NCBI GenBank assembly: GCA_964035575.1
Contig: OZ037845.1
Location: 1,178,001 to 1,242,000, forward strand
From: Rhynchopus sp. YZ270_cl-10
Taxonomy: Eukaryota
Direction: 5' to 3'
DNA length: 64,000 nucleotides
Every line of letters begins with the position of its first letter. Within the stretch, counting starts at the first letter, position 1. Below the pieces are notes generated by a model, which was not told the origin of the DNA, made no database searches, and saw nothing but the letters and a program-made list of their open reading frames with translations. Position numbers and translations under genes: made by a program. Of this stretch, positions 11,886 through 44,282 are shown one piece after another.

Positions 11886-12494
11886 TGTTGTGCATGATGA
11901 AATCCTGGAACCGCCCTAGCCAAGCCGAAGCAACGCTGTGGATACATTCCAACCTCACCTGACTGCTGACACAACACAAACCACACTCCTTTTTATCCGC
12001 CTTGCAAGGCTCCTCTACCCACTCTGCACATAGAAAGCAATGATGATAAACTTGGCATTTGGATTGAAGCCTCGGCTGTTGAAACCAAAACCTTTCTACC
12101 TTAACATATCTTGCTGAGCACACTTCCGTCTCCACACAGCAACATGATGCACAAAACACAACCATTCGGCCAGAGGTGGCCAACAAAGTCACGGCACCCT
12201 CGGTGGGGCTCGAAAAATTATGTCAAACTCAACAGGTCTGATTGTTGCTGCTCTCCTCTTTTGAACACAACCACTTCACATGACACCACACACAGCGAGC
12301 ATGATGACAAAACTTCTTGGCAGCACCGCAAGCTGCTCCCAATACACCTCTCAGGAGGATATGAGGGTTGGTCTTTCTTTCGCCCCTAGCTGACTCCACA
12401 ACCTGTGCACGTTCACACACCACATCACATCACATCACACCACGATGCAACACAACTGCAGCTTCGGAAGTGATGAAAACCACTGATATGCCGC
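11886..12494 (+). ncRNA. snoRNA block 1: C/D types C (11894-11969), I (12040-12117), E (12144-12241), F (12301-12393) and truncated A (12470-12494)
   Basis: RTGATGA...CTGA boxes. Terminal stems TGTTGTG/CACAACA (C) and CAGCAACA/TGTTGCTG (E). rRNA-antisense guides next to D or D' boxes. Confidence 0.85.
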
Positions 12495-12608
12495 ATACAA
12501 ACGCATCCACTACGCTTCTCTAACATCATTTGAAATGTCACGTGTCTCTTCACCGTACTTCAAATTACACATATTTCCAACCAAACTTTCACAGGTTTTA
12601 CACATAAC

Positions 12609-13052
12609 ATGCCGCGTGCTCTGCAGGTTGAGAACCGTTGTTTTGAATCCTATGGTGTTGCATGCGCATCGTATTTCGAAGTTATCGTGGGCACTGCAAC
12701 ACTGCCGGTTGTTGGTACGAGGTTCTACAAGCATTCCGCACCGAACGGTAGTGACGCTATCGTCATCGAGGCGGAGCCTGCCAACAAGTACGACAGTAAC
12801 GCCTTGAAGATCGTGAACGTCACAAAGCGTGAGCAGATGGGCCACCTCAGCAGAGGGGTCTCCGCCGTCCTCGCACCTCTCATCGCCAGCGGCACAGTGC
12901 GTGCGTCAGTGTGCATCGAGCACTACACCCTAGACAACGTTGCGGTGTTCTTGACCCTCTACACACTACACTGCAATATGACCGATCAAATGATCTGTGC
13001 TCTCTCCAAATGCCCCGGGTTCGTAGCAGCAGAAAAGCTTCACTGCGGGTAG
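12609..13052 (+). CDS. Stand-alone HIRAN-domain protein
   Basis: VVGTRFY...EPANKYDSNALKI...GHLSRGVSAVLAPLI matches the HIRAN consensus (VVGxxYY, EPxNxYDxNAI, GxLP/SR). Intronless. Confidence 0.75.
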   Translation: MPRALQVENRCFESYGVACASYFEVIVGTATLPVVGTRFYKHSAPNGSDAIVIEAEPANKYDSNALKIVNVTKREQMGHLSRGVSAVLAPLIASGTVRASVCIEHYTLDNVAVFLTLYTLHCNMTDQMICALSKCPGFVAAEKLHCG

Positions 13053-13261
13053 CGTTCGCCTGCGTTGCTGACAGAACGCCTAGACTTCTCTGATGAAAGG
13101 TGCGTATGTGCCTGTAGGGAATGCGTTTATGTTTCATCTTCTCGTGGAGTGTCATGTGTCTGCATGTTGCTCCGTCTCCGTCTCGTCCTTTTTTAAAAAA
13201 ATAGTGGTGGATCAAATTTTGCGTTTGTCATTCAACTTTTAGAGTTTTCTACACAGCGAGC

Positions 13262-13514
13262 ATGATGACAAAACTTCTTGGCAGCACCGCAAGCTGCTCC
13301 CAATACACCTCTCAGGAGGATATGAGGGTTGGTCTTTCTTTCGCCCCTAGCTGACTCCACAACCTGTGCACATTCACACACCACACCACATCACACCACG
13401 ATGCAACACACAACTGCAGCTTCGGAAGTGATGAAAACCACTGATATGCCGCCCCAGTCGGAGCTCCACGAGCGATGCCCGAATAGGCTTTACAATACCT
13501 TAGGACACCTCTGA
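13262..13514 (+). ncRNA. snoRNA block 2: types F (13262-13354) and A (13428-13514)
   Basis: C and D boxes. F guide TCTTTCGCCCCTA is antisense to LSU UAGGGGCGAAAGA. A guides are antisense to CUGGGGCGGC and AGGUGUCCUAAGG. Confidence 0.88.
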
Positions 13515-13648
13515 TCTCTCTTCTGCCTCGAAACACATCAGGTCTCCTGTTTCTTGGGTTGAGAGGCAACACCACTCCTCTCCTCTCCCAGACAACCCTC
13601 CACACAGATTCTCAACAACACACCACAACACCACCCTCACCACACAAA

Positions 13649-14293
13649 ATGGCACCCACCCTGAAGCTTCAGTACTTCGGCGTCCCTGCGAAGCCTGAGG
13701 CGACCCGTCTTGCCGCACACATCGGTGGCCTTGCGCTTGAGGATGAGCACATTGACTTCCCTGCCTGGGGTGGGGGTCTGAAGGCGAAGGTGGCCCCGCA
13801 GCAGCTGCCGCTTCTGCACGTGGACGGGGAGGTGGTGGGACAGCACAGCGCAATCCTGCGTTACGTTGCGAAACTCGCGAACCTGTACCCCAAGGATGCA
13901 CGTGCGGCGCTGAGTGTGGACGAGACGATTGACTACGCAGATGAGATCTTCGTGATTCTGACCAAGTTGTTTTTCATCCAGGACGAGGACGAGAAGAGGG
14001 TGGCCCGCTGCACTGCCATTGCTGAGGGTGGGGACATCCACAAGTGGCTTGTCTTCCTGGACTCGCGTCTTGCGGGGAAGAAGTACGCTGTGGGTGACTC
14101 CCTGACAGTGGCAGACTTGGTCATCTTCACGCAGGTGCACTTCCTTGTGTCTGGGTTCCTTGACGGTGTCCCGTTGGACTCACTGGTGTCGTTCAAGAAC
14201 CTTGCTGCACACAAGGCTGTGGTTGCAAACCACCCGAAGGTGAAGGAGTACTACGCGTCTGCGGAGGGCCTTCGCACTGTCTTCAAGGCATGA
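13649..14293 (+). CDS. Glutathione S-transferase, Tyr-type (sigma-like), copy 1
   Basis: KLQYF N-terminus, QLPLLHVDG, AILRY and GDSLTVADL N-capping motif. Start taken at MAPTL. Confidence 0.9.
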   Translation: MAPTLKLQYFGVPAKPEATRLAAHIGGLALEDEHIDFPAWGGGLKAKVAPQQLPLLHVDGEVVGQHSAILRYVAKLANLYPKDARAALSVDETIDYADEIFVILTKLFFIQDEDEKRVARCTAIAEGGDIHKWLVFLDSRLAGKKYAVGDSLTVADLVIFTQVHFLVSGFLDGVPLDSLVSFKNLAAHKAVVANHPKVKEYYASAEGLRTVFKA

Positions 14294-14779: not shown

Positions 14780-15756
14780 ATGATGAAAACCTTTTAATTG
14801 TCAGTGCTGGCACCAATGTGAGTCTCGACCATGAGCACATACTTTAACCGCTTTGTCTGAAACACTTCTGTTCCCCACCTTTCCACCCTCCTCTGTTGTG
14901 CATGATGAAATCCTGGAACCGCCCTAGCCAAGCCGAAGCAACGCTGTGGATACATTCCAACCTCACCTGACTGCTGACACAACGCAAACCACACTCCACA
15001 CTTTCCTTCTCTTCTTGAGTGATGAAACATTACGCACATTTGACTAGAGTCTCGGACAGCACAGCTGCATGACCGAGTAAAGCAACATACTCATTGATTC
15101 TGACAAGACACATTTCAGGTTCTCTTCTTTCGGGAGCACACTTCCGTCTCCACACAGCAACATGATGCACAAAACACAACCATTCGGCCAGAGGTGGCCA
15201 ACAAAGTCACGGCACCCTCGGTGGGGCTCGAAAAATTATGTCAAACTCAACAGGTCTGATTGTTGCTGCTCTCCTCTTTTGAACACAACCACTTCACATG
15301 ACACCACACACAGCGAGCATGATGACAAAACTTCTTGGCAGCACCGCAAGCTGCTCCCAATACACCTCTCAGGAGGATATGAGGGTTGGTCTTTCTTTCG
15401 CCCCTAGCTGACTCCACAACCTGTGCACGTTCACACACCACATCACATCACATCACATCACATCACATCACATCACATCACATCACATCACATCACATCA
15501 CATCACATCACATCACATCACATCACATCACATCACATCACATCACATCACATCACATCACATCACATCACATCACATCACATCACATCACATCACATCA
15601 CATCACATCACATCACATCACATCACATCACATCACATCACGATGCAACACACAACTGCAGCTTCGGAAGTGATGAAAACCACTGATATGCCGCCCCAGT
15701 CGGAGCTCCACGAGCGATGCCCGAATAGGCTTTACAATACCTTAGGACACCTCTGA
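14780..15756 (+). ncRNA. snoRNA block 3: types B (14780-14860), C (14902-14977), D (15019-15103), E (15162-15259), F (15319-15411), A (15670-15756)
   Basis: Six consecutive C...D box units separated by pyrimidine- or CA-rich spacers. D has stem TCTTG/CAAGA and guide TTGACTAGAGTC antisense to LSU GACUCUAGU. Confidence 0.88.
15439..15641. repeat. (CACAT)n microsatellite, about 40 units, in the F-A spacer
   Basis: Perfect pentamer array. The same spacer has only 1-4 units in other blocks. Confidence 0.97.
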
Positions 15757-17761: not shown

Positions 17762-19237
17762 ATGAAGATGCTCTCAATCACCGTGTCAGCACTGCTCGCG
17801 TCTGTCGCGTCTGCAGACGTGAACTGCTGCCTGCAGCACCCCACCTGCCCGCTTGGGTTTGTGGAGACGGCGACACCGTGCACACCAGAGGGACTGCAGA
17901 GCGGGACATGCACGACAGCGTCTGCGTGCTGCACCACCATCACGTGCAGGCAGATTGTGCAGGGGTGCGACACGAACGCCGACTGCCCGAAAACACAGTT
18001 CTGCCGCGCCACTCGTGACACCTCCTCGCCCGACCTTTTTGCGTGCCTCACAACAAAGGAATGTGTCGACTACCAGCCTGAGGGTGCAGGTTGTGGCGGC
18101 TTCACCCTGCCCTGCTTCTACAACAGGTGCGCTTCGGGACTCACCTGCCAGTGTTCGGAGCCAACGTGCGACGCACCTGGAACCTGTGTGAAGGAGACTG
18201 CCCCTCCGGCACCCACTGTTGTGAACGGCTGCGACACGAACGCCGACTGCCCGAAAACACAGTTCTGCCGCGCCACACGTGACACCTCCTCTCCCGACCG
18301 GTTCGCATGCCTCACAACAAAGGAGTGTGTTGACTACCAGCCTGAGGGTGCGGGTTGTGGCGGCTACACCCTGCCCTGCTTCTACAACAGGTGTGCTTCG
18401 GGACTCACCTGCCAGTGCTCGGAGCCGACGTGCGACGCACCCGGAACCTGTGTGAAGGAGACTGCCCCTCCGGCACCCACTGTTGTGACTGGGTGCGACA
18501 CGAACGCCGACTGCCCGAGCACGCAGTTCTGCCGCGCCACTCGCGACACCTCTTCGCCCGACCAGTTCGCATGCCTCACAACAAAGGAGTGTGTTGACTA
18601 CCAGCCTGAGGGTGCGGGTTGTGGCGGCTTCACCCTGCCCTGCTTCTACAACAGGTGTGCTTCGGGACTCACCTGCCAGTGCTCGGAGCCGACGTGCGAC
18701 GCACCCGGAACCTGTGTGAAGGAGACCCCCCCGACCCCGCCGACCCCCTCCTTCTGCTCCGCACAGGGCCCCACCTGTGGCACAGGCTTTGATGCCTGCA
18801 AGCCTGGCTACACCTGCACCGTTGACCCTACCTGCCAGGGCCCAAGGTGCCAGAAGTGCTGTGTGCGTGACGAGGAGCCCTGCTGCCCCGCCCCGCTTTC
18901 CTGCCCTGCCGGCTACGGCGCTGTTGAGGGCACAGACGCACTCATCTGCAGGATCGACATGCTGCTGGCACTGCTCACGGGAAGCACCAGCGCCTGTGTG
19001 GAGGTGACTGACCAGAAGCAGGATGGCTGCTGCGAGGACGTGATCTGCAGGAAGCAGGCCATGTGCGGAGACAAGGCGTCGTGCACAGCCTCCACCGGCT
19101 GCACTGCGCGTGACCACGTGTGCGTTGCGGGATCTGACGGCGCCAGCTGCTGTGTGTTCAACCAGTGTGTGCTCATGGACTGCGGTGACCAGAAGCGCTG
19201 CATGCTGGACAGCGAGGGCCGTGGACAGTGCATCTGA
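17762..19237 (+). CDS. Secreted cysteine-rich protein with three 88-aa (264-bp) tandem domains
   Basis: Signal peptide MKMLSITVSALLASVASA. Repeats of GCDTNADCP...EGAGCGG...RCASGLTC. Strong GC3 bias, intronless. Confidence 0.88.
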   Translation: MKMLSITVSALLASVASADVNCCLQHPTCPLGFVETATPCTPEGLQSGTCTTASACCTTITCRQIVQGCDTNADCPKTQFCRATRDTSSPDLFACLTTKECVDYQPEGAGCGGFTLPCFYNRCASGLTCQCSEPTCDAPGTCVKETAPPAPTVVNGCDTNADCPKTQFCRATRDTSSPDRFACLTTKECVDYQPEGAGCGGYTLPCFYNRCASGLTCQCSEPTCDAPGTCVKETAPPAPTVVTGCDTNADCPSTQFCRATRDTSSPDQFACLTTKECVDYQPEGAGCGGFTLPCFYNRCASGLTCQCSEPTCDAPGTCVKETPPTPPTPSFCSAQGPTCGTGFDACKPGYTCTVDPTCQGPRCQKCCVRDEEPCCPAPLSCPAGYGAVEGTDALICRIDMLLALLTGSTSACVEVTDQKQDGCCEDVICRKQAMCGDKASCTASTGCTARDHVCVAGSDGASCCVFNQCVLMDCGDQKRCMLDSEGRGQCI

Positions 19238-20310: not shown

Positions 20311-20391
20311 ATGATGAAAACATTTTAATTGTCAGTGCTGGCACCAATGTGAGTCTCGACCATGAGCACATACTTTAACCGCTTTGTCTGA
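20311..20391 (+). ncRNA. snoRNA block 4: single type B C/D snoRNA upstream of beta-tubulin
   Basis: ATGATGA...CTGA. Guide GTGCTGGCACCA is antisense to SSU UGGUGCCAGCA(C). Confidence 0.82.
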
Positions 20392-20484: not shown

Positions 20485-21849
<1,365 letters not shown>

Positions 21850-22293: not shown

Positions 22294-23066
22294 ATGATGA
22301 CCTTAAATGACTCCTGAAGGCACGCCCCAGCAAGGCGTGTCCTGTGTTGACATAGATTATGAGTCTCAAAGTGCAGGATCAGCCATCTGACTACGACTGC
22401 TTGCTGTGTCTTGCTGTGAAGTTGAACCGCCGCCCGCACAGGGAAGGTGCTGTAATGTGCACTCTATCCCTAGTCTAGGTGGGCGCAGATGCTCCTCTCT
22501 CCACCACATGCTGTTGTGCAGAGCACAGCACAGCACACTCCTTTCTCCACCCGATGATGATAAACTTGGCATTTGGATTGAAGCCTCGGCTGTTGAAACC
22601 AAAACCTTTCTACCTTAACATATCTTGCTGAGCACACTTCCGTCTCCACACAGCAACATGATGCACAAACACAACCATTCGGCCAGAGGTGGCCAACAAA
22701 GTCACGGCACCCTCAGTGGGGCTCGAAAAATTATGTCAAACTCAACAGGTCTGATTGTTGCTGCTCTCCTCTTTTGAACACAACCACTTCGCATGACACC
22801 ACACACAGCGAGCATGATGACAAAACTTCTTGGCAGCACCGCAAGCTGCTCCCAATACACCTCTCAGGAGGATATGAGGGTTGGTCTTTCTTTCGCCCCT
22901 AGCTGACTCCACAACCTGTGCACATTCACACATCACATCACATCACACCACGATGCAACACACAACTGCAGCTTCGGAAGTGATGAAAACCACTGATATG
23001 CCGCCCCAGTCGGAGCTCCACGAGCGATGCCCGAATAGGCTTTACAATACCTTAGGACACCTCTGA
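22294..23066 (+). ncRNA. snoRNA block 5: G (22294-22390), putative AGA-box H/ACA RNA H (22428-22492), I (22554-22631), E (22658-22754), F (22814-22906), A (22980-23066)
   Basis: C/D boxes in five units. G guide GCAGGATCAGCCA is antisense to the SSU 5' end UGGYUGAUCCUGC. H is a hairpin followed by AGA+3 nt. Confidence 0.85.
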
Positions 23067-23200: not shown

Positions 23201-23845
23201 ATGGCACCCACCCTGAAGCTTCAGTACTTCGGCGTCCCTGCGAAGCCTGAGGCGACCCGTCTTGCCGCACACATCGGTGGCCTTGCGCTTGAGGATGAGC
23301 ACATTGACTTCCCTGCCTGGGGTGGGGGTCTGAAGGCGAAGGTGGCCCCGCAGCAGCTGCCGCTTCTGCACGTGGACGGGGAGGTGGTGGGACAGCACAG
23401 CGCAATCCTGCGTTACGTTGCGAAACTCGCGAACCTGTACCCCAAGGATGCACGTGCGGCGCTGAGTGTGGACGAGACGATTGACTACGCAGATGAGATC
23501 TTCGTGATTCTGACCAAGTTGTTTTTCATCCAGGACGAGGACGAGAAGAGGGTGGCCCGCTGCACTGCCATTGCTGAGGGTGGGGACATCCACAAGTGGC
23601 TTGTCTTCCTGGACTCGCGTCTTGCGGGGAAGAAGTACGCTGTGGGTGACTCCCTGACAGTGGCAGACTTGGTCATCTTCACGCAGGTGCACTTCCTTGT
23701 GTCTGGGTTCCTTGACGGTGTCCCGTTGGACTCACTGGTGTCGTTCAAGAACCTTGCTGCACACAAGGCTGTGGTTGCAAACCACCCGAAGGTGAAGGAG
23801 TACTACGCGTCTGCGGAGGGCCTTCGCACTGTCTTCAAGGCATGA
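23201..23845 (+). CDS. Glutathione S-transferase, copy 2 (protein identical to copy 1)
   Basis: Same translation as 13649-14293. Confidence 0.9.
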   Translation: MAPTLKLQYFGVPAKPEATRLAAHIGGLALEDEHIDFPAWGGGLKAKVAPQQLPLLHVDGEVVGQHSAILRYVAKLANLYPKDARAALSVDETIDYADEIFVILTKLFFIQDEDEKRVARCTAIAEGGDIHKWLVFLDSRLAGKKYAVGDSLTVADLVIFTQVHFLVSGFLDGVPLDSLVSFKNLAAHKAVVANHPKVKEYYASAEGLRTVFKA

Positions 23846-24355: not shown

Positions 24356-24436
24356 ATGATGAAAACCTTTTAATTGTCAGTGCTGGCACCAATGTGAGTC
24401 TCGACCATGAGCACGTACTTTAACCGCTTTGTCTGA
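24356..24436 (+). ncRNA. snoRNA block 6: single type B
   Basis: Near-identical to 14780-14860. Confidence 0.82.
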
Positions 24437-24539: not shown

Positions 24540-25472
24540 ATGAAAGTGTGCTTCCTTGGAGTGGGCAAGATGGGTGCAGGGATGTGTCTGCGCCTTGCGG
24601 ATCAGGGCCACGAGGTGGCTGCATGGAACAGAACGAAGGCACGCGCGGACGCGATGCGTGAGGAGAGCGAGGCCAAGGAGAGGATTGTGGTGCACGAGGC
24701 GCTTGGGGACGTGCTGAAGGAGGGTGCTGCGGACGCAGCGAGTGCGCCGCCGATTGTGGCGATCCTTGGGACGATGCGGGACGTGGAGGAGCTGATTGAG
24801 AAGGCGGAGGCGGAGGTGCCTGGTGTGTGGAAGGGACGCACGTTTGTGAACCTTGTGTCGGGGAACCCTGACGAGGGGCGCACGATCGGGACGATGCTGG
24901 CTGCGAAGGGTGTGGGGCACTACGTGGACGCGGCCTACAGCGGTGGGCCTTCGAAGACGCGTGCGGGGACAGGGACGCTGTTCCTGTCGTCGGCAGACAA
25001 GGCGACAACAGACGTGCTGACGGAGGGCTTCCTGAAGGACCTGGGTGTGCCGATGTGGTCTGGGGATGTTGGGGCGAGCCGTGCGCTGGACTACGCAGTG
25101 GTGGACGTGGCGCTGGCTGTGTTCACGTCGTGGTCCGCCAACCTGAGCATGCTGGAGAAGGAGGGTGTGCCGCACGACCTTGTGATGGAGTCTATGCGTC
25201 AGCGCTTTGACGCTGTGCCCGGTGCCATGGGCCTCTACGCAGAACGCATGCGCGACCGCTCTGACGAGGCATACGCACACAAGCCTATCGCCACCGTTAA
25301 CTCCTGGCTCAACTTCACTGCAGGCCGCCTCCCCTACTTCAAGGCAAACGACTTCTCCACAGTCGTCCCCGACTTCGTTGCTGCCAACCTCACAAAATTA
25401 TCCGAAGCCGGCCACGGTGGCGACGACATGACACGTCTCCAGGAAATCACCCGCTACACCAAGCCGGAGTAG
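24540..25472 (+). CDS. NAD(P)-dependent oxidoreductase of the 6PGD/beta-HAD fold, imine-reductase-like
   Basis: GVGKMG Rossmann motif, WNRT, VNLVSG.P, YVDAAYSGGP, GDVGASRALDYA. Intronless. Confidence 0.85.
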   Translation: MKVCFLGVGKMGAGMCLRLADQGHEVAAWNRTKARADAMREESEAKERIVVHEALGDVLKEGAADAASAPPIVAILGTMRDVEELIEKAEAEVPGVWKGRTFVNLVSGNPDEGRTIGTMLAAKGVGHYVDAAYSGGPSKTRAGTGTLFLSSADKATTDVLTEGFLKDLGVPMWSGDVGASRALDYAVVDVALAVFTSWSANLSMLEKEGVPHDLVMESMRQRFDAVPGAMGLYAERMRDRSDEAYAHKPIATVNSWLNFTAGRLPYFKANDFSTVVPDFVAANLTKLSEAGHGGDDMTRLQEITRYTKPE

Positions 25473-25814: not shown

Positions 25815-27236
25815 ATGGCCGACTACACACGCAGGGGCCCGGCACGCACTGTGGGTGTGGGTATGGTGGGGGTCCCTCCAGGTCCGGGGGGGAAGGGTGG
25901 GACGAAGGGGTCTCCCGTGAAACAACCGGGCATGGCGTCGCCGAGAACACCTGGCCAGGGTATGTCTGCACCAGCGGGCATGCACACCGGAGCGTTGCAT
26001 CACAACCAACACCACAACATCTTCGGCTCTCCCTCCACTGGGGTACGTCGTCAATCCCCCGCAGCCTCCCCGGGTAATGCCTACACAACCCACCCAGGAC
26101 CAGGAACTCCTGGACGTCAGCAGCCAGCTCCGTTCATTCCAGCGGTGCGTGAAAACGTACCACCACCAAACCGCAATGTACGCCCTGCTGCGCCTGAACA
26201 AAGAGGGGTAAGGGTGTTGGAGCATCGATCGGAGGGGCCACCACCTCAGTCTGTTTTAGGTCATACCAACGGAGGTCATGCGGAGCAGGGAAGACGGCCG
26301 ACCATGGAGGATGCACACGAGGCGCATCCTAACATTGCAGATGGGGTGAGCTTCTACTTTGTGTGTGACGGTCATAGTGGCAGAGGTATTGCTGATTTGT
26401 CTGCAAAGCTGTTGCCGCAGGCGATTCGGGAGAGTGACCCAAAGAGATTGCATTCGGCGCCAGCGTCGTTGTTGACAGACATCTTTGTTAAATGCGACAG
26501 AGATATGTTCAAGATGACGGCTCGCAACAGAGGGCGTGAGGGTGGCGCAACGTGCGTTGCTGCGTGCAGTATCGGCAACGACCTTTACCTTGCAAACCTA
26601 GGAGACAGTCGTGCAGTCCTCAGCGAAGCGGGGAAGGCAATCCAGCTGACAAAAGACCACAAACCGACGGACCCTCAAGAGGCGCAACGGGTACGCGATA
26701 TGGGCGGCTGTATCGCCTTTGGGCGGGTAGGTGGTTGTCTCGCAATCACCCGCGCATTTGGAGACTACGAGCTCAAAGGGGGCGACCGCGTTCTCCAAGA
26801 AGGCGCACCCATCCCTGTCTCAAACGTCCCCGAGATCTCCCACATCCAACTCTCCGCTACAGCAGAATTCTTGATTCTTGGGTGCGACGGAATATGGGAC
26901 GTCCTCTCCTCTCAAGAGGCCGTGACAAAGTGTCGTGAATTCATTGCAAAGGGTCCACAAAAGATGGCGCAAGAATTGGTCAAGTACTCCTTGGATAGAG
27001 GGACCACTGACAATGTGTCTGCCCTCATTGTTGTATTCTCGGAACGACGGGACGATGCTCAACAAGCAAATGGTACACGTAACGGCGCCCAGCCCTATGC
27101 AAACAACGGTTACCAACAGCCAGGCCACGCAGCCACAGCAAGGGCGCAACGCACCTATGGAGGACCAGGCCCCGCCCCGGTATCCCCAGGTAACGGACCC
27201 TTCCACGCCGCAACAGCTAGAAAGAGACCGCACTAA
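25815..27236 (+). CDS. Protein phosphatase 2C (PPM family) with low-complexity termini
   Basis: QGRRPTMED, DGHSG, ANLGDSRAV, DHKP, LAITRAFGD, LGCDGIWD and DNVS motifs. Confidence 0.95.
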   Translation: MADYTRRGPARTVGVGMVGVPPGPGGKGGTKGSPVKQPGMASPRTPGQGMSAPAGMHTGALHHNQHHNIFGSPSTGVRRQSPAASPGNAYTTHPGPGTPGRQQPAPFIPAVRENVPPPNRNVRPAAPEQRGVRVLEHRSEGPPPQSVLGHTNGGHAEQGRRPTMEDAHEAHPNIADGVSFYFVCDGHSGRGIADLSAKLLPQAIRESDPKRLHSAPASLLTDIFVKCDRDMFKMTARNRGREGGATCVAACSIGNDLYLANLGDSRAVLSEAGKAIQLTKDHKPTDPQEAQRVRDMGGCIAFGRVGGCLAITRAFGDYELKGGDRVLQEGAPIPVSNVPEISHIQLSATAEFLILGCDGIWDVLSSQEAVTKCREFIAKGPQKMAQELVKYSLDRGTTDNVSALIVVFSERRDDAQQANGTRNGAQPYANNGYQQPGHAATARAQRTYGGPGPAPVSPGNGPFHAATARKRPH

Positions 27237-33057: not shown

Positions 33058-33449
33058 GTGATGAAACATTATGCACATTTGACTAGAGTCTCGGACAGCA
33101 CAGCTGCATGACCGAGTAAAGCAACATACTCATTGATTCTGACAAGACACATTTCAGGTTCTCTTCTTTCGGGAGCACACTTCCGTCTCCACACAGCAAC
33201 ATGATGCACAAACACAACCATTCGGCCAGAGGTGGCCAACAAAGTCACGGCACCCTCGGTGGGGCTCGAAAAATTATGTCAAACTCAACAGGTCTGATTG
33301 TTGCTGCTCTCCTCTTTTGAACACAACCACTTCACATGACACCACACACAGCGAGCATGATGACAAAACTTCTTGGCAGCACCGCAAGCTGCTCCCAATA
33401 CACCTCTCAGGAGGATATGAGGGTTGGTCTTTCTTTCGCCCCTAGCTGA
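33058..33449 (+). ncRNA. snoRNA block 7: D (33058-33142), E (33201-33297), F (33357-33449)
   Basis: Near-identical to block 3 modules. Homology stops at about 33506, just before box C of type A. Confidence 0.86.
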
Positions 33450-33675
33450 CTCCACAACCTGTGCACATTCACACATCACACCACGATGCAACACACAACT
33501 GCAGCTTGGCCGACAGAATGCATCTGAGCTTAATGCAACGGGGTTACAACACCTTCCCTCTGCACTTCTGTTTCGCCACACTTCACACATGATGTATCAC
33601 TCTAATATTCCTCCCAGCACCTCAGCCACGTCACCCCACAGATACTCTTTTGATACAAACACATACCTTGCTCCA

Positions 33676-35967
33676 ATGCTACGCACGACACTGCTCCTCA
33701 CAGCTGTTGCGGCTGTCTCAGCTCAGCAGTGCTGGGCCAACGACGACTGCGCACCAAGCGAGTGGTGCCGTCCGCTTGAATGGTACGGCCACTGCCTCTC
33801 GTTCTACTCTGTCTGTGTGCCGAAGCGTGCAGAGGGTGAGACCTGTGGCGGTGCACGTCCATGCCGTGCCCAGCGCTGTCAAGACCACCTTTTGTGTGAG
33901 GGCGATGGTACGTACCACACACCGCTGTGTGTCCAACCCAAGCAGGAGACATGCACTCTGCAGTGCGGAACTGTTGTTGCAAACGGATGGATGGGCAACG
34001 ACGAGGGAACCAACGACTGCAACATGTGCAACTGCATCAACGGAGGTCTTGCGTGCACAAAGATGGGTTGCCCCAACAGCAAGGAGTGCCCGAAGCCTGA
34101 GCCCACCACCTGCACTCTTGGATGTGGCACTGTTGTCCCTGTCGGATGGGGTGGAAACGACGAGGGTGACAACGCTTGCAACACGTGCAGCTGCACTGAG
34201 AGCGGACACCTCATCTGCACTCTGATTGCGTGCCCTGACCTGCCTTGCCCAACAAAGAAGTCCTGTGAGCTTCAGTGTGGAACTGTTGTTGCTGATGGAT
34301 GGACTGGAAAGGGTGAGGGAACAAACGACTGCAACACTTGCTCCTGCAGAGATGGCGGTCTTGCGTGCACAAAGATGGGTTGCCCTAACAGCAAGGAGTG
34401 CCCGAAGCCTGAGCCCACCACCTGCACTCTTGGATGTGGCACTGTTGTCCCTGTCGGATGGAGTGGAAACGACGAGGGTGACAACGCCTGCAACACATGT
34501 GGCTGCATGGAGAGTGGTCTCCTTCGCTGCACTCTGATTGCGTGCCCTGACCTGCCTTGCCCAGCAAAGAAGTCCTGTGTGCTTCAGTGCGGAACTGTTG
34601 TTGCTGATGGATGGACTGGAAAGGGTGAGGGAACAAACGACTGCAACACTTGCTCCTGCAGAGATGGCGGTCTTGCGTGCACAAGGATGGGTTGCCCTAA
34701 CAGCAAGGAGTGCCCGAAGCCTGAGCCCACCACCTGCACTCTTGGATGTGGCACTGTTGTCCCTGTCGGATGGGGTGGAAACGACGAGGGTGACAACGCT
34801 TGCAACACGTGCAGCTGCACTGAGAGCGGACACCTCATCTGCACTCTGATTGCGTGCCCTGACCTGCCTTGCCCAGCAAAGAAGTCCTGTGAGCTTCAGT
34901 GCGGAACTGTTGTTGCTGACGGATGGACTGGAAAGGGTGAGGGAACAAACGACTGCAACACTTGCTCCTGCAGAGATGGCGGTCTTGCATGCACAAAGAT
35001 GGGTTGCCCCAACAGCAAGGAGTGCCCGAAGCCTGAGCCCACCACCTGCACTCTTGGATGTGGCACTGTTGTCCCTGTCGGATGGGGTGGAAACGACGAG
35101 GGTGACAACGCCTGCAACACATGTGGCTGCATGGAGAGTGGTCTCCTTCGCTGCACTCTGATTGCGTGCCCTGACCTGCCTTGCCCAACAAAGAAGTCCT
35201 GTGAGCTTCAGTGCGGAACTGTTGTTGCTGACGGATGGTCTGGAAAGGACGAAGGCACGAACGACTGCAACACTTGCTCCTGCAGAGATGGCGGTCTTGC
35301 GTGCACAAAGATGGGTTGCCCTAACAGCAAGGAGTGCCCGAAGCCTGAGCCCACCACCTGCACTCTTGGATGTGGCACTGTTGTCCCTGTCGGATGGGGT
35401 GGAAACGACGAGGGTGACAACGCTTGCAACACGTGCAGCTGCACTGAGAGCGGACACCTCATCTGCACTCTGATTGCATGCCCTGACCTGCCTTGCCCAA
35501 CAAAGAAGTCCTGTGAGCTTCAGTGCGGAACTGTTGTTGCTGATGGATGGACTGGAAAGGGTGAGGGAACAAACGACTGCAACACTTGCTCCTGCAGAGA
35601 TGGCGGTCTTGCATGCACAAAGATGGGCTGCCCCAACAGCAAGGAGTGCCCGAAGCCTGAGCCCACCACCTGCACTCTTGGATGTGGCACTGTTGTTCCT
35701 GTCGGATGGAGTGGACACGACGAGGGTGACAACGCCTGCAACACATGTGGCTGCATGGAGAGTGGTCTCCTTCGCTGCACTCTGATTGCGTGCCCTGACC
35801 TGCCTTGCCCAACAAAGAAGTCCTGTGAGCTTCAGTGCGGAACTGTTGTTGCTGACGGATGGACTGGAAAGGACGAGGGAACCAACGACTGCAACACTTG
35901 CTCCTGCAACGACGGAGCTCTCGGATGCACCAAGATTGCGTGTCTCGACTCGCTGACATGCCTCTAG
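33676..35967 (+). CDS. Secreted multidomain pacifastin-like serine protease inhibitor (13 domains)
   Basis: Signal peptide MLRTTLLLTAVAAVSA. Thirteen C-N-x-C-x-C-x2-3-G-x3-C-T-x3-C units in a 312-bp tandem repeat. Confidence 0.82.
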   Translation: MLRTTLLLTAVAAVSAQQCWANDDCAPSEWCRPLEWYGHCLSFYSVCVPKRAEGETCGGARPCRAQRCQDHLLCEGDGTYHTPLCVQPKQETCTLQCGTVVANGWMGNDEGTNDCNMCNCINGGLACTKMGCPNSKECPKPEPTTCTLGCGTVVPVGWGGNDEGDNACNTCSCTESGHLICTLIACPDLPCPTKKSCELQCGTVVADGWTGKGEGTNDCNTCSCRDGGLACTKMGCPNSKECPKPEPTTCTLGCGTVVPVGWSGNDEGDNACNTCGCMESGLLRCTLIACPDLPCPAKKSCVLQCGTVVADGWTGKGEGTNDCNTCSCRDGGLACTRMGCPNSKECPKPEPTTCTLGCGTVVPVGWGGNDEGDNACNTCSCTESGHLICTLIACPDLPCPAKKSCELQCGTVVADGWTGKGEGTNDCNTCSCRDGGLACTKMGCPNSKECPKPEPTTCTLGCGTVVPVGWGGNDEGDNACNTCGCMESGLLRCTLIACPDLPCPTKKSCELQCGTVVADGWSGKDEGTNDCNTCSCRDGGLACTKMGCPNSKECPKPEPTTCTLGCGTVVPVGWGGNDEGDNACNTCSCTESGHLICTLIACPDLPCPTKKSCELQCGTVVADGWTGKGEGTNDCNTCSCRDGGLACTKMGCPNSKECPKPEPTTCTLGCGTVVPVGWSGHDEGDNACNTCGCMESGLLRCTLIACPDLPCPTKKSCELQCGTVVADGWTGKDEGTNDCNTCSCNDGALGCTKIACLDSLTCL

Positions 35968-37445: not shown

Positions 37446-38147
37446 ATGCCGACCGGAATCCTGAACTCACACGACTTCTCGCAGCCTTGCCGCTCTGTTT
37501 CGTGGTTTGCTGCCTACGCGAAGTCTGATGTTGAGCTGCGCACGGTTGAGATGCTGAAGGGGGAGCAGAAGCACCCCGACTACGTTGCGAAGTTCCCTGC
37601 CGGCCAGATCCCGTCGTACGAGGAGGGCGACTTCTTCCTGGAGGAGAGTGCTGCGATCCTGCAGTACCTTGCTGAGGGACACGCCATTGTGCCGAAGGAC
37701 AAGAAGCAGCAGGCGAAGGTGATGCAGTTTGTGGCACGGAACCTGGCCAGAGTGCGCAAGATCAGCGGCGAGGTTGTGACCCACTGCTTCTTTGCGTCTG
37801 CCGAGGAGTTCCCCGCCCTGCTCAAGGCAGGCATCGAGAAGGTCACCCCGACCCTGCAGCTGTACGACACCCTCCTCTCGAAGCAGAACTTCGTGGCTGG
37901 GGACGACATCTCGATTGCGGACTTCCTGTTCGCACCTGAGGTGGACCAGCTCCTCCTTGTGCAGGGGAAAATTGGGAAGAACCTGCTGGAGGGATACCCG
38001 TCCATCCTTGCCTACATTGAGCGGTTGAAGTCTGTTGAGGGCTACAGTGCAAACTTCCAGAAGTCTGGTGAGTGGTTGAAGAATGCAGCAGGAATCAAGG
38101 CTGCTATTGAGGCCAAGAAGGCTGCTGCTGCTGCTGCCCAGAAGTAG
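37446..38147 (+). CDS. Glutathione S-transferase, theta-like (Ser-type)
   Basis: SQPCRSV, GQIP, ESAAILQYL and GDDISIAD motifs. Confidence 0.9.
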   Translation: MPTGILNSHDFSQPCRSVSWFAAYAKSDVELRTVEMLKGEQKHPDYVAKFPAGQIPSYEEGDFFLEESAAILQYLAEGHAIVPKDKKQQAKVMQFVARNLARVRKISGEVVTHCFFASAEEFPALLKAGIEKVTPTLQLYDTLLSKQNFVAGDDISIADFLFAPEVDQLLLVQGKIGKNLLEGYPSILAYIERLKSVEGYSANFQKSGEWLKNAAGIKAAIEAKKAAAAAAQK

Positions 38148-38908: not shown

Positions 38909-38995
38909 GTGATGAAAACCACTGATATGCCGCCCCAGTCGGAGCTCCACGAGCGATGCCCGAATAGGCTTTACAATACCTTAGGACACCTCTGA
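38909..38995 (+). ncRNA. snoRNA block 8: single type A double-guide C/D snoRNA
   Basis: GTGATGA, guide 1, D' CGGA, guide 2, CTGA. Identical to the other A copies. Confidence 0.88.
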
Positions 38996-39125: not shown

Positions 39126-39770
39126 ATGGCACCCACCCTGAAGCTTGTCTACTTCGCCCTCCCCTCGAAGCCTGAGGCGACCCGTCTTGCCGCACACATC
39201 GGTGGCCTTGCGTTTGAGGATGAGCACATTGACTTCCCTGCCTGGGGTGGGGGTCTGAAGGCGAAGGTGGCACCGCAGCAGCTGCCGCTTCTGCACGTGG
39301 ACGGGGAGGTGGTGGGACAGAGCAACGCAATCCTGCGCTACGTCGGGAGACTGACGAACCTGTACCCCAAGGATGCACGTGCGGCGCTGAGTGTGGACGA
39401 GATCATTGACTACGCAGATGAGCTCTTCACAGTTCTGCGCAAGTCGTTTGAGATCAAGGACGAGGATGAGAAGAAGGCCTTCCGTGTGACTGCCATTGCT
39501 GAGGGTGGGGACTTCCACAAGTGGCTTGTCTTCCTGGACTCGCGTCTTGCGGCGAAGAAGTACGCTGTGGGTGACTCCCTGACAGTGGCAGACTTGGTCA
39601 TCTTCACATATGCACAGTTCCTTGTGTCTGGGTTCCTTGACGGTGTCCCGTCGGACGCACTGGTGTCGTTCAAGAACCTTGCTGCACACAAGGCTGTGGT
39701 TGCAAACCACCCGAAGGTGAAGGAGTACTACGCGTCTGCGGAGGGCCTCCGTGCTGTTTTGAAGGCATGA
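39126..39770 (+). CDS. Glutathione S-transferase, divergent paralogue of copies 1-3
   Basis: Same length (214 aa) and mostly identical, but with canonical QSNAIL and a different central helix. Confidence 0.92.
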   Translation: MAPTLKLVYFALPSKPEATRLAAHIGGLAFEDEHIDFPAWGGGLKAKVAPQQLPLLHVDGEVVGQSNAILRYVGRLTNLYPKDARAALSVDEIIDYADELFTVLRKSFEIKDEDEKKAFRVTAIAEGGDFHKWLVFLDSRLAAKKYAVGDSLTVADLVIFTYAQFLVSGFLDGVPSDALVSFKNLAAHKAVVANHPKVKEYYASAEGLRAVLKA

Positions 39771-40280: not shown

Positions 40281-41171
40281 GTGATGAAAACCACTGATAT
40301 GCCGCCCCAGTCGGAGCTCCACGAGCGATGCCCGAATAGGCTTTACAATACCTTAGGACACCTCTGATCTCTCTTCTGCCTCGAAACACATTGACACGAA
40401 AACATGATGAAAACCTTTTAATTGTCAGTGCTGGCACCAATGTGAGTCTCGACCATGAGCACATACTTTAACCGCTTTGTCTGAAATACTTCTGTTCCCC
40501 ACCTTTCCACCCCTCCTCTGTTGTGCATGATGAAATCCTGGAACCGCCCTAGCCAAGCCGAAGCAACGCTGTGGATACATTCCAACCTCACCTGACTGCT
40601 GACACAACACAAACCACCCACCACAATTTCCTTCTCTTCTTGAGTGATGAAACATTACGCACATTTGACTAGAGTCTCGGACAGCACAGCTGCATGACCG
40701 AGTAAAGCAACATACTCATTGATTCTGACATATCTTGCTGAGCACACTTCCGTCTCCACACAGCAACATGATGCACAAACACAACCATTCGGCCAGAGGT
40801 GGCCAACAAAGTCACGGCACCCTCGGTGGGGCTTGAAAAATTATGTCAAACTCAACAGGTCTGATTGTTGCTGCTCTCCTCTTTTGAACACAACCACTTC
40901 ACATGACACCACACACAGCGAGCATGATGACAAAACTTCTTGGCAGCACCGCAAGCTGCTCCCAATACACCTCTCAGGAGGATATGAGGGTTGGTCTTTC
41001 TTTCGCCCCTAGCTGACTCCACAACCTGTGCACATTCACACATCACATCACATCACGATGCAACACACAACTGCAGCTTCGGAAGTGATGAAAACCACTG
41101 ATATGCCGCCCCAGTCGGAGCTCCACGAGCGATGCCCGAATAGGCTTTACAATACCTTAGGACACCTCTGA
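40281..41171 (+). ncRNA. snoRNA block 9: A (40281-40367), B (40404-40484), C (40527-40602), D (40644-40728), E (40768-40864), F (40924-41016), A (41085-41171)
   Basis: Seven C/D units showing the full cyclic order A-B-C-D-E-F-A. Confidence 0.88.
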
Positions 41172-41312
41172 TCTCTCTTCTGCCTCGAAACACATGAATG
41201 CTATTTAGATTGAGGAGCTGTTGATGTGATGGAAGGAGCGACACCTCGTACCCCACAAACACACCACACCAACAGACACACTATTATCCTTTCCCTTTCC
41301 ACTCACACCCAA

Positions 41313-41792: not shown

Positions 41793-42155
41793 GGTGCATG
41801 TGAGGCACATCTGTTCTGTCTGACCTGCTTCAGGCAACCCTAACCTTTTATTGCTTTTATTGATTTACTTTTCAAGAAACACTTTGGCTGGAACATGTGT
41901 ACTGCACGTGTTGGCAGCTCTCTTGTCCTTCTTCTTTTGTTCATGTGCACATGAATGTTTGCTTCATGTAAATGCAGAGATGTACCAAAACAGTCTGTCA
42001 AGCGGCTTTCTATCCACAGCTGCAGGACACTGTCTTGTGCATCTGTATTCTATTTAAACGAACACACAATTCATTCACCCATTTCCCCCTTTTCCCCCTT
42101 TTCTTTCTCCAATTCCTGCCCTGTTGTGGTTGTGCAGTTTACCCCACACACGTTC

Positions 42156-42934
42156 ATGATGACCTTAAATGACTCCTGAAGGCACGCCCCAGCAAGGCGT
42201 GTCCTGTGTTGACATAGATTATGAGTCTCAAAGTGCAGGATCAGCCATCTGACTACGACTGCTTGCTGTGTCTTGTTGTGAAGTTGAACCGCCGCCCGCA
42301 CAGGGAAGGTGCTGTAATGTGCACTCTATCCCTAGTCTAGGTGGGCGCAGATGCTCCTCTCTCCACCACATGCTGTTGTGCACAGCACAGCACAGCACAC
42401 TTCTTTCTCCACCCGATGATGATAAACTTGGCATTTGGATTGAAGCCTCGGCTGTTGAAACCAAAACCTTTCTACCTTAACATATCTTGCTGAGCACACT
42501 TCCGTCTCCACACAGCAACATGATGCACAAAACACAACCATTCGGCCAGAGGTGGCCAACAAAGTCACGGCACCCTCGGTGGGGCTTGAAAAATTATGTC
42601 AAACTCAACAGGTCTGATTGTTGCTGCTCTCCTCTTTTGAACACAACCACTTCACATGACACCACACACAGCGAGCATGATGACAAAACTTCTTGGCAGC
42701 ACCGCAAGCTGCTCCCAATACACCTCTCAGGAGGATATGAGGGTTGGTCTTTCTTTCGCCCCTAGCTGACTCCACAACCTGTGCACATTCACACATCACA
42801 TCACATCACATCACACCACGATGCAACACACAACTGCAGCTTCGGAAGTGATGAAAACCACTGATATGCCGCCCCAGTCGGAGCTCCACGAGCGATGCCC
42901 GAATAGGCTTTACAATACCTTAGGACACCTCTGA
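42156..42934 (+). ncRNA. snoRNA block 10: G (42156-42252), H (42290-42354), I (42416-42493), E (42520-42617), F (42677-42769), A (42848-42934)
   Basis: Near-identical to block 5. Confidence 0.85.
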
Positions 42935-43068
42935 TCTCTCTTCTGCCTCGAAACACATCAAGTCTCCTGTTTCTTGGGTTGAGAGGCAACACCACTCCTC
43001 TCCTCTCCCAGACAACCCTCCACACAGATTCTCAACAACACACCACAACACCACCCTCACCACACAAA

Positions 43069-43713
43069 ATGGCACCCACCCTGAAGCTTCAGTACTTCGG
43101 CGTCCCCGCGAAGCCTGAGGCGACCCGTCTTGCCGCACACATCGGTGGCCTTGCGCTTGAGGATGAGCACATTGACTTCCCTGCCTGGGGTGGGGGTCTG
43201 AAGGCGAAGGTGGCACCGCAGCAGCTGCCGCTTCTGCACGTGGACGGGGAGGTGGTGGGACAGCACAGCGCAATCCTGCGTTACGTTGCGAAACTCGCGA
43301 ACCTGTACCCCAAGGATGCACGTGCGGCGCTGAGTGTGGACGAGACGATTGACTACGCAGATGAGATCTTCGTGATTCTGACCAAGTTGTTTTTCATCCA
43401 GGACGAGGACGAGAAGAGGGTGGCCCGCTGCACTGCCATTGCTGAGGGTGGGGACATCCACAAGTGGCTTGTCTTCCTGGACTCGCGTCTTGCGGGGAAG
43501 AAGTACGCTGTGGGTGACTCCCTGACAGTGGCAGACTTGGTCATCTTCACGCAGGTGCACTTCCTTGTGTCTGGGTTCCTTGACGGTGTCCCGTTGGACT
43601 CACTGGTGTCGTTCAAGAACCTTGCTGCACACAAGGCTGTGGTTGCAAACCACCCGAAGGTGAAGGAGTACTACGCGTCTGCGGAGGGCCTTCGCACTGT
43701 CTTCAAGGCATGA
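43069..43713 (+). CDS. Glutathione S-transferase, copy 3 (protein identical to copies 1 and 2)
   Basis: Same translation with a few synonymous changes. Confidence 0.9.
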   Translation: MAPTLKLQYFGVPAKPEATRLAAHIGGLALEDEHIDFPAWGGGLKAKVAPQQLPLLHVDGEVVGQHSAILRYVAKLANLYPKDARAALSVDETIDYADEIFVILTKLFFIQDEDEKRVARCTAIAEGGDIHKWLVFLDSRLAGKKYAVGDSLTVADLVIFTQVHFLVSGFLDGVPLDSLVSFKNLAAHKAVVANHPKVKEYYASAEGLRTVFKA

Positions 43714-44223
43714 GCTGCTTTGGGCTGACATTGACTTCCTTTCACTTTGATACATTCGTTTTACATGTTTTCTTTACTTCGATTTTCTTGTTTTTTGACT
43801 TGACTGGGTTGGGAGGAATGCATGTGCAATCTTTTGCAGTTCGCTCTGCACAACGGGTGTTCTTCAACCCATTGCATTTGTGTTCTGTTCTCATCCCGTC
43901 TGTTTTGTTGAACGGCTCATGTTGCAATTGTGTGTGATCTGTGTGTTGCACACGAACGTAATTATTGTTGCAAACATGAGTTTTGTTCTTCACATTTTGT
44001 TGCTCTCCTCTTCCGTTCCACGTCCACAAGACGTCTGCACGGTTACAACTTTCTTTACTTTCTTTGCTTTCTTTGTGTGTCCATACACACAACTAACTTC
44101 GACAGCTTACTTCTTTTTCGATTTCAACTTTTTTTTTGGTTTGGTTTCTTTCACTGATCCAGATGACACCAACAAAGAAACGACACGAACTTCCCTTTTT
44201 TCCCTTCTGAACATCGACACGAA

Positions 44224-44282
44224 ATCATGAAAACCTTTTAATTGCACTGGCACCAATGCGTCTCTACCAGCACATACTTTCC
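44224..44282 (+). pseudogene. Decayed type B snoRNA (block 11)
   Basis: Alignable to B (AAAACCTTTTAATTG, CTGGCACCAATG, AGCACATACTTT), but box C is broken and box D is missing. Confidence 0.7.

Follow-up and report, generated by a model that had tools for sequence, protein, structure and literature searches.

A Likely snoRNA-Seeded Duplication Hub in a Probably Diplonemid Polycistronic Unit

Introduction

It appears rather likely that the locus described here is a snoRNA-seeded duplication hub within a polycistronic unit, in which near-identical snoRNA blocks drive repeated duplication and reshuffling of the genes that stand beside them. The unit is most likely diplonemid, and the nearest named homologues of its genes come from Rhynchopus, Flectonema, Lacrimia, and Diplonema. 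Diplonemid genes are described as co-oriented, polycistronic, and trans-spliced (PMC10161547).

Organization of the Locus

The window (the whole 64-kb stretch of DNA that was analysed) holds an island of 11 blocks, all on the plus strand and composed of nine snoRNA-like modules, A to I (Table 1). A preliminary description had recognized 11 blocks assembled from the same nine near-identical modules, and this is confirmed by 37 intact copies, with 21 mismatches and 9 gaps over 6,609 pairwise columns. Two further copies are not intact: E is represented at 12470 by 25 nt only, and the F at 44224 is degenerate. The mosaic of modules and genes is sound, but it is not one continuous island: a module-free 5.8 kb (27237-33020), which is also devoid of Pfam-supported genes, divides it into two sub-clusters.

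Table 1: Blocks and genes of the island and the gene that follows it.
Feature	Position	Strand	Remarks
Block 1: A-B-C-D + first 25 nt of E	11894..12494	+
Stand-alone HIRAN gene	12609..13052	+	Pfam
Block 2: D-E	13262..13514	+
GST family a, copy 1	13649..14293	+	Pfam
Block 3: F-A-G-C-D-(CACAT)42-E	14780..15756	+
Cys-rich protein	17762..19237	+	three 264-bp repeats; no module ahead
Block 4: F	20311..20391	+
Beta-tubulin	20509..21849	+	Pfam
Block 5: H-I-B-C-D-E	22294..23066	+	I = H/ACA-like hairpin, about 22425-22495
GST family a, copy 2	23201..23845	+	Pfam; within duplicate 22286-24421
Block 6: F	24356..24436	+
Imine-reductase-like enzyme	24540..25472	+	Pfam NAD_binding_2 + RedAm-like_C
PP2C phosphatase	25815..27236	+	Pfam; no module ahead
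Block 7: G-C-D	33058..33449	+
Pacifastin-repeat protein	33589..35967	+	Pfam; 312-bp unit x6.2; likely start 33677
GST family b	37446..38147	+	Pfam; no module ahead
Block 8: E	38909..38995	+
GST family a, diverged copy	39126..39770	+	Pfam; about 89% DNA identity across duplicate
Block 9: E-F-A-G-C-D-E	40281..41171	+	after G, last 13 nt of B
Chromodomain-like protein, 159 aa	41313..41792	+	weak Pfam match
Block 10: H-I-B-C-D-E	42156..42934	+
GST family a, copy 3	43069..43713	+	Pfam
Block 11: degenerate F	44224..44280	+	box C altered, D-box end gone
753-aa gene	44314..47595	+	two introns (966 and 54 nt); directly after block 11

Almost every block had been said to end about 100-230 bp before a start codon. 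This is true of nine of the 11 (103-227 bp); block 3 is followed only by the leader of a chromodomain gene, broken at 15853, and block 11 lies 33 bp before the two-intron gene, which begins just outside the island boundary given earlier (44282). Contrary to the preliminary description, the downstream gene does not change each time: the 11 blocks lead to seven different genes, with the same GST family behind four and the same chromodomain leader behind two. Three of the 12 island genes (Cys-rich, PP2C, and GST-b) have no block in front.

The HIRAN gene lies within 756 bp of unique inserted sequence (12495-13250). On either side stands a repeat of about 205 bp that consists of D, the spacer, and the start of E. 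Judged from the sequence, this insert is the one true insertion visible, and it lies inside a block. HIRAN forms a one-member cluster; the idea that it is a piece of a larger gene is rejected, as stand-alone relatives of 143-178 aa align along most of it.

Predicted Guide snoRNAs

Box C/D snoRNAs are marked by box C (RUGAUGA) close to the 5′ end and by box D (CUGA) at the 3′ end, and they measure about 60-110 nt. Modules A to H, of 76-98 nt, have this form, module C carrying AUGAUGC. They are predicted box C/D guide snoRNA genes, and the guides of five of them fit conserved eukaryotic rRNA sites beyond shuffled controls. Box-adjacent 10-nt guides, lying beside box D or D′, were compared with 115 rRNA loci of other eukaryotes, not with the host rRNA, and with 1000 shuffles; Rfam confirmed the rRNA identity of all four loci scanned. 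The guides of A, D, E, and G pair with rRNA in 75, 42, 83, and 74 of the 115 loci, counts matched by 6, 11, 5, and 3 of the 1000 shuffles, respectively. As a gapped pattern, the guide stretches of B and C match one molecule at near-constant spacing in the 115 loci. The box-adjacent guide of C also pairs with rRNA, but C served in the locus search and its count is circular. For F and H the result is borderline, since 78 and 57 of 1000 shuffles do equally well; their targets lie 3 kb upstream of the anchor, where only 25 of the 115 loci extend. No box-adjacent guide was found for B (856 of 1000 shuffles equally good). This test superseded a longest-match comparison that ignored the boxes and was weak (A 143, B 489, F 54, and H 200 of 500 shuffles).

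No module matches an Rfam family at the gathering score. Below the threshold, A scores 28 of 35 bits to U83B and E scores 23.6 of 55 bits to snR67, the latter weak alignment falling at the guide of E. An exact 24-nt piece of E had 0 matches in metagenome contigs. Module I is an H/ACA-like single hairpin ending in AGA plus three nt, a form described as a euglenozoan H/ACA-like trait (PMC3273796). Its 73-nt hairpin has a z of −1.85, with 4 of 200 shuffles equally stable, and its pocket gives a 12-pair rRNA candidate in 14 of 115 loci, a figure reached by trying many pocket settings with no control. Possible extra modules after E and D (13535-13580, 33500-33560, and 41190-41270) fold no better than shuffles and are read as gene leaders.

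Cargo Genes

The twelve ORFs of the island are uninterrupted, as first described, and Pfam bears out the names HIRAN, GST (five genes), tubulin, imine-reductase-like, PP2C, and pacifastin. The chromodomain name is less strong, with an E value of 0.007-0.01 that falls below the cut-off, and the Cys-rich ORF has no Pfam match. The larger flanking genes had been credited with one to five introns. Four carry them (3, 2, 2, and 5 GT-AG introns, with open frames after splicing), whereas two of the six visible flanking genes (52453 and 62597, the latter open to the window end) need no intron. Among independent island genes nine of nine are intronless, a term judged here from ORF continuity, versus the two of six that flank them. 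At the share of intronless genes given for D. papillatum, 59% (PMC10161547), the chance of nine in nine is about 0.009, with gene length ignored and a different species as reference; PMC12621601, as far as it was accessible, yielded no intron-density figure. The lack of introns is real but is not accounted for by the duplication-hub reading.

Recurrence was judged by membership in 90% clusters of a sequence collection. By this measure the recurring cargo is a small, limited pool that comprises two GST families and the chromodomain, Cys-rich, and imine-reductase-like genes. A second contig, of 993,258 bases, holds one imine reductase, three Cys-rich, four GST-b, two chromodomain, and seven diverged GST-a members. 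In contrast to these, the three flanking ORFs found in the collection form single-member clusters, from this contig only, and the gene at 44314 behaves as single-copy. In the GST tree, the window copies join copies of the 776,646- and 993,258-base contigs (100/99), only a minority of the inner forks being resolved. The cargo gives no support to horizontal transfer, since the imine-reductase-like, GST, and HIRAN proteins have full-length diplonemid homologues.

Any tie of copies on other contigs to snoRNA blocks would be conjectural, these copies being known from their genes and readable leaders. Four copies of recurring genes, on the second contig or elsewhere, have readable leaders without a module. 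Among these, two GST paralogues of the second contig show no module translation in the 59 and 82 open codons ahead of them, and a GST-b copy on that contig retains a module-free leader. Upstream of a Cys-rich copy elsewhere on this contig, the sequence changes about 220 nt before the start, and 99 open codons run ahead of it without module translation. Shuffling therefore also occurs without snoRNAs, and the blocks may have been carried along as much as they have seeded the process. Of the gene capture that had been proposed, one insertion, HIRAN, is visible; the recurring genes form a small pool whose other copies can lack a leading module.

Duplication, Depth, and Junctions

Segmental duplication accounts for the three identical GSTs, the duplicates measuring 1.6-2.15 kb with 95.7-97.7% identity: 22286-24421 corresponds to 42148-44280 at 97.4%, and 13251-14867 to 22803-24443 at 97.7%. 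Direct non-coding repeats flank genes. One measures 457 bp at 97.6-98.9% and another 482 bp at 97.5%, above the limits given for Leishmania-type amplification, 200 bp and 85% identity as a minimum (PMC4028189). The modules are long and alike enough to act as homology sites, as had been suggested.

Contigs of independent runs were compared over 38780-44880, in the right sub-cluster. In run X1 the depth is 887 on chromodomain-gene contigs versus 91 on the gene after block 11; in X4 it is 1423-1560 versus 178-213. The region looks amplified, in keeping with the earlier claim, with about 7-10-fold depth, Logan contig depth not being copy number and the run types being unrecorded. Module order varies among data sets, and joints absent from the window link A to H (X7), the chromodomain 3′ end to the D-E spacer (X1), and the GST 3′ end to F without E (X1). 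New joints and depth, as read from contigs, do not separate fixed copies from ongoing events. Run X6, RNA by guess, has low depth over GST genes and their 3′ spacers only, and its bare modules are no evidence.

Shared sequence ends 2-24 nt past the D box at six compared exits and begins 0-52 nt ahead of the C box at nine compared entries. Junction motifs and positions vary among modules, and the spacers are CA/pyrimidine-rich. Module E is left at the identical base (+24) by three different continuations and F at +7/+8 by three; these recurrent exit bases exceed the regularity expected from random joins.

Proposed Mechanism and Alternatives

The duplication hub would arise in steps. In the CA/pyrimidine-rich spacers that snoRNAs and leaders have in common, a rare join at microhomology or a template switch would place a snoRNA block beside a gene's own leader, and the joins that survive would be those that leave the snoRNA and the splice acceptor of the gene intact. 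As the duplicates suggest, identical blocks (sharing as much as about 480 bp at 97-99%) would then undergo ordinary homologous recombination and thereby duplicate, delete, and reorder block-plus-gene units here and on other contigs, so that one small gene set recurs in many orders. By analogy with trypanosomes, the block would be transcribed like any other member of the polycistronic RNA. Trans-splicing at the acceptor of the next gene would then release the mRNA and, in the same step, the snoRNA precursor at its 3′ end. Release at that acceptor would explain the spacing of 100-230 bp, which amounts to one gene-leader length in a compact polycistronic unit and calls for no special system. The preliminary description had supposed that snoRNA excision helps to process the downstream mRNA; on analogy, the dependence is more likely reversed, with the acceptor of the next gene ending the snoRNA precursor. 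A dedicated recombinase would not be required.

A selected expression or dosage platform is an unlikely alternative. Here a place behind a block would raise output or allow co-amplification, so that detoxification, defence, and high-demand genes accumulate, and intronless genes would be favoured because cis-splicing would clash with fast precursor processing. The intron contrast between island and flanks, the apparent amplification, and the decay of the sole block before an intron-containing gene agree with it, as does selection on the dosage of a Leishmania snoRNA cluster, as described in PMC8713814. Modules are also kept intact, at 0.3% pairwise divergence versus 2.2% in the duplicated GST 3′ spacers; GST coding sequence, however, is as conserved (0.2%), and ordinary purifying selection suffices. 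A platform also fits poorly with the blockless quarter of the genes and with the module-free leaders of the GST paralogues and GST-b. Many other contigs carry uninterrupted GST homologues of 210-215 aa. The family thus seems to lack introns in any case, although gene calling favours this view, since a gene is called whole only when it is uninterrupted.

An RNA-mediated origin, in which snoRNA precursors or mRNAs were reverse-transcribed and inserted, is very unlikely. Junctions do lie close to module ends, no more than about 50 nt away, and some use the same base repeatedly; one entry starts at an acceptor-like CACAG 11 nt before D, and the cargo is without introns. However, the cargo starts 68-133 nt upstream of the likely (predicted) acceptor AG, a stretch that a trans-spliced mRNA would lack, so the joins look like DNA-level events. 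The HIRAN insert does not end in a poly(A) run at its 3′ junction, a spliced-leader motif has three three-mismatch matches in the window (0.85 expected) and none at a junction, and the duplicates cover several genes with their spacers.

A collapsed high-copy array might have been misassembled so that most of the present order is artefactual, but this is highly improbable. The depth suggests more copies than the window holds, none of the records compared crosses the whole stretch, and the main chromodomain contigs of X1 and X4 depart from the window copy at the same four places. Yet the copies have their own spacer differences, and when 38780-44880 is divided into 30 bins, X1 and X4 cover every one. 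The joints F-A and I-spacer-B-C, as well as that from the degenerate F to the 44314 gene, lie within single contigs. In addition, the assembly of this contig and of three others contains further distinct copies, which account for much of the depth.

Bacterial integrons have co-oriented genes with repeats between them in variable order, a tyrosine recombinase, and a common recombination site. An integron-like platform had been suggested, and the co-oriented, variably ordered genes parted by repeats, the three continuations from one exit base after E, and the apparently inserted HIRAN resemble one, but a site-specific recombinase moving cassettes at snoRNA-linked sites is extremely unlikely: no recombinase or integrase Pfam match occurs in the 40 scanned ORFs of the 64-kb window, junction sequences are unlike between modules and offer no common or fixed site, three of 12 genes lack the repeat, an intron-containing gene stands behind block 11, the gene pool is small and repetitive, and co-orientation is described as the rule in diplonemids (PMC10161547). 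A weak hAT dimerisation remnant lies inside an intron in the window.

Relation to Known Systems

The proposed duplication hub has counterparts in described systems. Trypanosomatid snoRNA clusters are repeated, intergenic, and on the same strand as their neighbours, with trans-spliced and polyadenylated precursors; they mix C/D and single-hairpin AGA-type RNAs, and one solitary snoRNA lies in a beta-tubulin 3′ UTR (PMC3273796). The present blocks share the mixture, repetition, intergenic position, and common strand. Those clusters are drawn as units with a repeat number, whereas the nine modules here occur in many orders and are interrupted by, and co-duplicated with, protein genes. In Leishmania, direct repeats drive RAD51-dependent duplication, and SIDER elements, which are direct, non-coding, 0.2 kb or longer, and at least 85% identical, give rise to duplications, deletions, and circles via homologous recombination (PMC4028189, PMC9910336). 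The repeats of the locus are likewise non-coding, direct, and placed between genes of a polycistronic unit; SIDERs, however, are mostly degenerate retroposons, and these are predicted functional snoRNA genes. In Leishmania donovani, snoRNA dosage varies among isolates and is selected, one cluster having 15 genes (PMC8713814). No protein cargo is interleaved in that cluster as described, unlike here.

Diplonema papillatum has tandem ncRNA units (SL-5S-U2), repeat-bounded genes, and gene 5′ regions that are often tandemly repeated (PMC10161547), and U3-U5 linkages are described in Euglena (PMC2784804). These too are small-RNA genes linked to other genes and duplicated together, but they join RNA gene to RNA gene, whereas the snoRNA blocks adjoin protein genes. 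The main text of PMC10161547 makes no mention of guide snoRNAs, and its supplement has a structural-RNA section. A literature search, mostly outside subscription journals, found no description of such a snoRNA-cargo system, and, by titles and abstract openings, no diplonemid snoRNA papers.

Significance

Diplonemids are abundant marine protists with probably little regulation at transcription start, so gene dosage matters in them. The locus suggests which repeats they use for dosage change, namely, working snoRNA genes. Selection that keeps these genes identical would also keep them recombinogenic. The locus further yields nine diplonemid guide-snoRNA candidates with predicted rRNA targets. 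A bolder and doubtful possibility is that this diplonemid has a selected duplication system that spans the genome and is seeded at its core by functional snoRNA genes; its blocks would acquire intronless genes (such as the single-copy HIRAN, inside module E), move, expand, and contract them, and tie the dosage of ribosome modification to that of detoxification and defence. If true, this would be a eukaryotic gene accordion made of housekeeping RNAs, not of dead transposons.

Organization of Modules and Blocks

Self-comparison of the window and a box C/D motif scan recovered nine modules. Modules A-H start with a box C motif, end with CTGA, and measure 76-98 nt, and module I is a single hairpin ending in AGA plus three bases. 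The 37 intact copies show 21 mismatches and 9 gaps over 6,609 pairwise columns; in addition, E occurs as a 25-nt fragment and F as a degenerate copy. The preliminary description of eleven blocks built from nine near-identical modules is confirmed, as is the position of nearly all of them about 100-230 bp before a start codon (103-227 bp for 9 of 11). Blocks are separated from the stop codon before them by 209-1073 bp and from the start after them by the length of one leader. The island is split by a 5.8-kb stretch free of modules. Each A-tract-rich stretch directly precedes one sub-cluster and has a similar AAA..GTATTC..TTTTTT motif at its end, possibly a common boundary or transcription start region.

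Blocks and other features of the window
Feature	Position	Composition or properties	Gene led
Block 1		ABCD plus E fragment	HIRAN
Block 2		DE	GST
Block 3		FAGCDE	Broken chromodomain leader
Block 4		F	Tubulin
Block 5		HIBCDE	GST
Block 6		F	Imine-reductase-like
Block 7		GCD	Pacifastin
Block 8		E	Diverged GST
Block 9		EFAGCDE	Chromodomain
Block 10		HIBCDE	GST
Block 11		Degenerate F	Gene 44314
TRF4/PAP-like non-canonical poly(A) polymerase gene	892-3252	3 introns	
A-tract-rich stretches	11825-11860; 32965-33010		
(CACAT)42 array	15434-15641	Within block 3	
34-bp palindromic motif	16633-16666	Also in first intron of gene 44314	
Degenerate GST 3′ spacer copies	17320-17462; 39969-40065	76-78%	
1.65-kb element	27450-29096	Terminal inverted repeats of ~160 bp, 89% alike, made of 21-bp subrepeats; no transposase match in frames scanned, no clear target-site duplication	
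Pacifastin-type protein	33589-35967	13 stretches; 312-bp unit, copies 88-93% alike	
(TTTG)24 array	38401-38495		
First intron of gene 44314	44872-45837	966 nt	
Weak hAT dimerisation remnant	45241-45612	In that intron; E 0.015	
ZNFX1-like helicase gene	54437-60162	1805 aa; five short introns	
Long simple array	61723-62170	9-bp unit, ~50 copies	

Identity of the Modules

An Rfam scan of the modules gave no family at threshold; A and E have weak C/D matches (E to snR67, at its guide). Guides were compared with rRNA of other eukaryotes. The guide-like stretches of C and B were combined into a single gapped query against metagenome contigs; this yielded 115 loci, the spacing being the same in nearly all, and the four scanned are all eukaryotic rRNA. 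Of the 115 loci, 75 pair with the 10-nt guide of A that adjoins a D or D′ box, 42 with that of D, 83 with that of E, and 74 with that of G, levels reached by 6, 11, 5, and 3 of 1000 shuffles, respectively; the count for C is circular, as C served in the locus search. Modules F (14 loci, 78/1000 shuffles) and H (16 loci, 57/1000) are borderline, and the region of their targets, 3 kb upstream of the anchor, is reached by only 25 of the 115 loci. Module B has no box-adjacent guide match in these loci, and module I has a possible, uncontrolled rRNA pocket target. Given box-adjacent pairing beyond shuffles and the C/D form, the prediction of five modules as snoRNAs is well supported; the remaining ones are likely snoRNAs.

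Cargo Genes and Their Introns

Among named organisms, those with the closest homologues to the GST, imine-reductase-like, and HIRAN proteins are Rhynchopus, Flectonema, Lacrimia, and Diplonema, which makes the source most likely a diplonemid. The gene was said to change behind each block, but seven different genes follow the eleven blocks: one GST family stands behind four of them and the same chromodomain leader behind two. Three of the 12 intact island genes have no block in front. The three identical GSTs lie within duplicates of 1.6-2.15 kb, as seen by self-comparison of the window. Nor does an intronless gene follow every block: gene 44314 carries two introns, and its junction with block 11 is spanned by single contigs in the independent runs X1 and X4. 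All 12 ORFs (nine independent genes) are uninterrupted, compared with two of six flanking genes. At the intronless share of D. papillatum, a different species, and with no gene-length correction, P is ~0.009 for all nine. The intron deficit looks real and is only partly accounted for. Many other contigs carry uninterrupted GST homologues, which suggests that this family was already intronless beforehand, albeit with a bias, since genes are called whole only if uninterrupted.

The repetitive pacifastin-type protein occurs here in a protist. The poly(A) polymerase gene, nearest upstream of the first block, is separated from it by 8.6 kb of AT-rich DNA; such enzymes act in trypanosome snoRNA maturation, and this vicinity is probably a coincidence. 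ZNFX1 relatives have a role in RNA silencing.

Copies beyond the Window

By cluster look-up, near-identical relatives of five genes sit on a 993,258-base contig, which has 1 of 2 cluster members for the imine reductase, 3 of 5 for the Cys-rich gene, 4 of 6 for GST-b, 2 of 7 for the chromodomain gene, and 7 of 9 for diverged GST-a. Further copies occur on the window's own contig outside the window and singly on contigs of 969,288 and 905,952 bases. The three flanking ORFs found are single-member clusters on the window's contig; PP2C, pacifastin, and two flanking ORFs gave no exact-sequence match in the look-up. The 993,258-base contig fits a candidate second locus that is non-allelic and shares the gene pool of the window. 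Some leaders of outside copies can be read where the N-terminus is over-called. In three chromodomain copies the leader is the one found behind E in the window. Upstream of two GSTs (59 and 82 codons read), a GST-b (58), and a Cys-rich copy (99), there is no module translation. On other contigs (proteins P0018, P0049, and P0054), apparently of another genome, 11 GST copies of at least 90% identity lie on contigs of eight different lengths; three readable leaders agree over ~17 codons upstream and differ beyond that point, a hint that GST units dispersed there in a similar way.

Origin of the Arrangement

What is directly seen is a set of identical direct repeats lying between genes, duplicates spanning several genes, module order that varies, a single insertion, and copies on other contigs. 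We consider it probable that the snoRNA blocks seed duplication and reshuffling of genes. A selected expression or dosage platform is unlikely, though snoRNA dosage can come under selection (PMC8713814), which speaks for it.

Shared sequence stops 24 nt past E and 7-8 nt past F, each in three different continuations, and 15 nt past A; it starts 0-52 nt ahead of box C in nine compared entries. Three junctions fall within modules: E ahead of HIRAN, a G/B hybrid in block 9, and the degenerate F. In five genes the cargo begins 68-133 nt upstream of the predicted acceptor AG, so the junctions look like DNA joins and not copies of trans-spliced mRNA; a presumed spliced-leader motif matches no junction in the window. 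On both counts an RNA-mediated origin of the block-gene units is quite improbable. HIRAN, a whole stand-alone gene judged by its relatives and the one member of its cluster, lies in 756 bp of unique sequence flanked on either side by a copy of the same ~205 bp (D, spacer, and start of E), and is the sole clear capture. The degenerate GST 3′ spacer copies, which lack their GST-a or sit in diverged surroundings, represent older traces of the same shuffling.

That the observed order is largely an assembly artefact is very improbable. Contigs from four runs were mapped onto positions 38780-44880, which cover the later part of the right sub-cluster. Depth, which does not equal copy number, is 887 for the chromodomain gene versus 91 for gene 44314 in X1 and 1423-1560 versus 178-213 in X4, and reaches 1262-1856 in module contigs. 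Among the joints listed, A to H (run X7), chromodomain 3′ end to D-E spacer (X1), and GST 3′ end to F without E (X1) have no counterpart in the window.

The integron-like platform first proposed is hardly credible, since the locus fails the features tested: no recombinase occurs among the 40 ORFs scanned, junction motifs differ (CA- or pyrimidine-rich, resembling ordinary gene leaders in the window), and some genes are blockless.

Euglenozoans are known to have repeated snoRNA clusters and, separately, repeat-driven amplification; no description of the two together, with modules reshuffled between protein genes, turned up in the open-access literature searched. In snoRNA-seeded duplication, the spacing of blocks and genes would be a product of polycistronic processing, as blocks lie a leader length before the next start. 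Published work describes trypanosome snoRNA precursors as themselves trans-spliced and polyadenylated (PMC3273796) and D. papillatum genes as co-oriented in polycistronic clusters and trans-spliced, with introns in 41% (PMC10161547). New snoRNA-gene neighbours would arise from microhomology joins within low-complexity spacers and be retained if snoRNA and acceptor remain whole. Block-to-block homologous recombination would then amplify and reorder the units, as two reports describe for Leishmania direct repeats of at least 0.2 kb (PMC4028189; PMC9910336), and the locus would work like SIDER-driven amplification.
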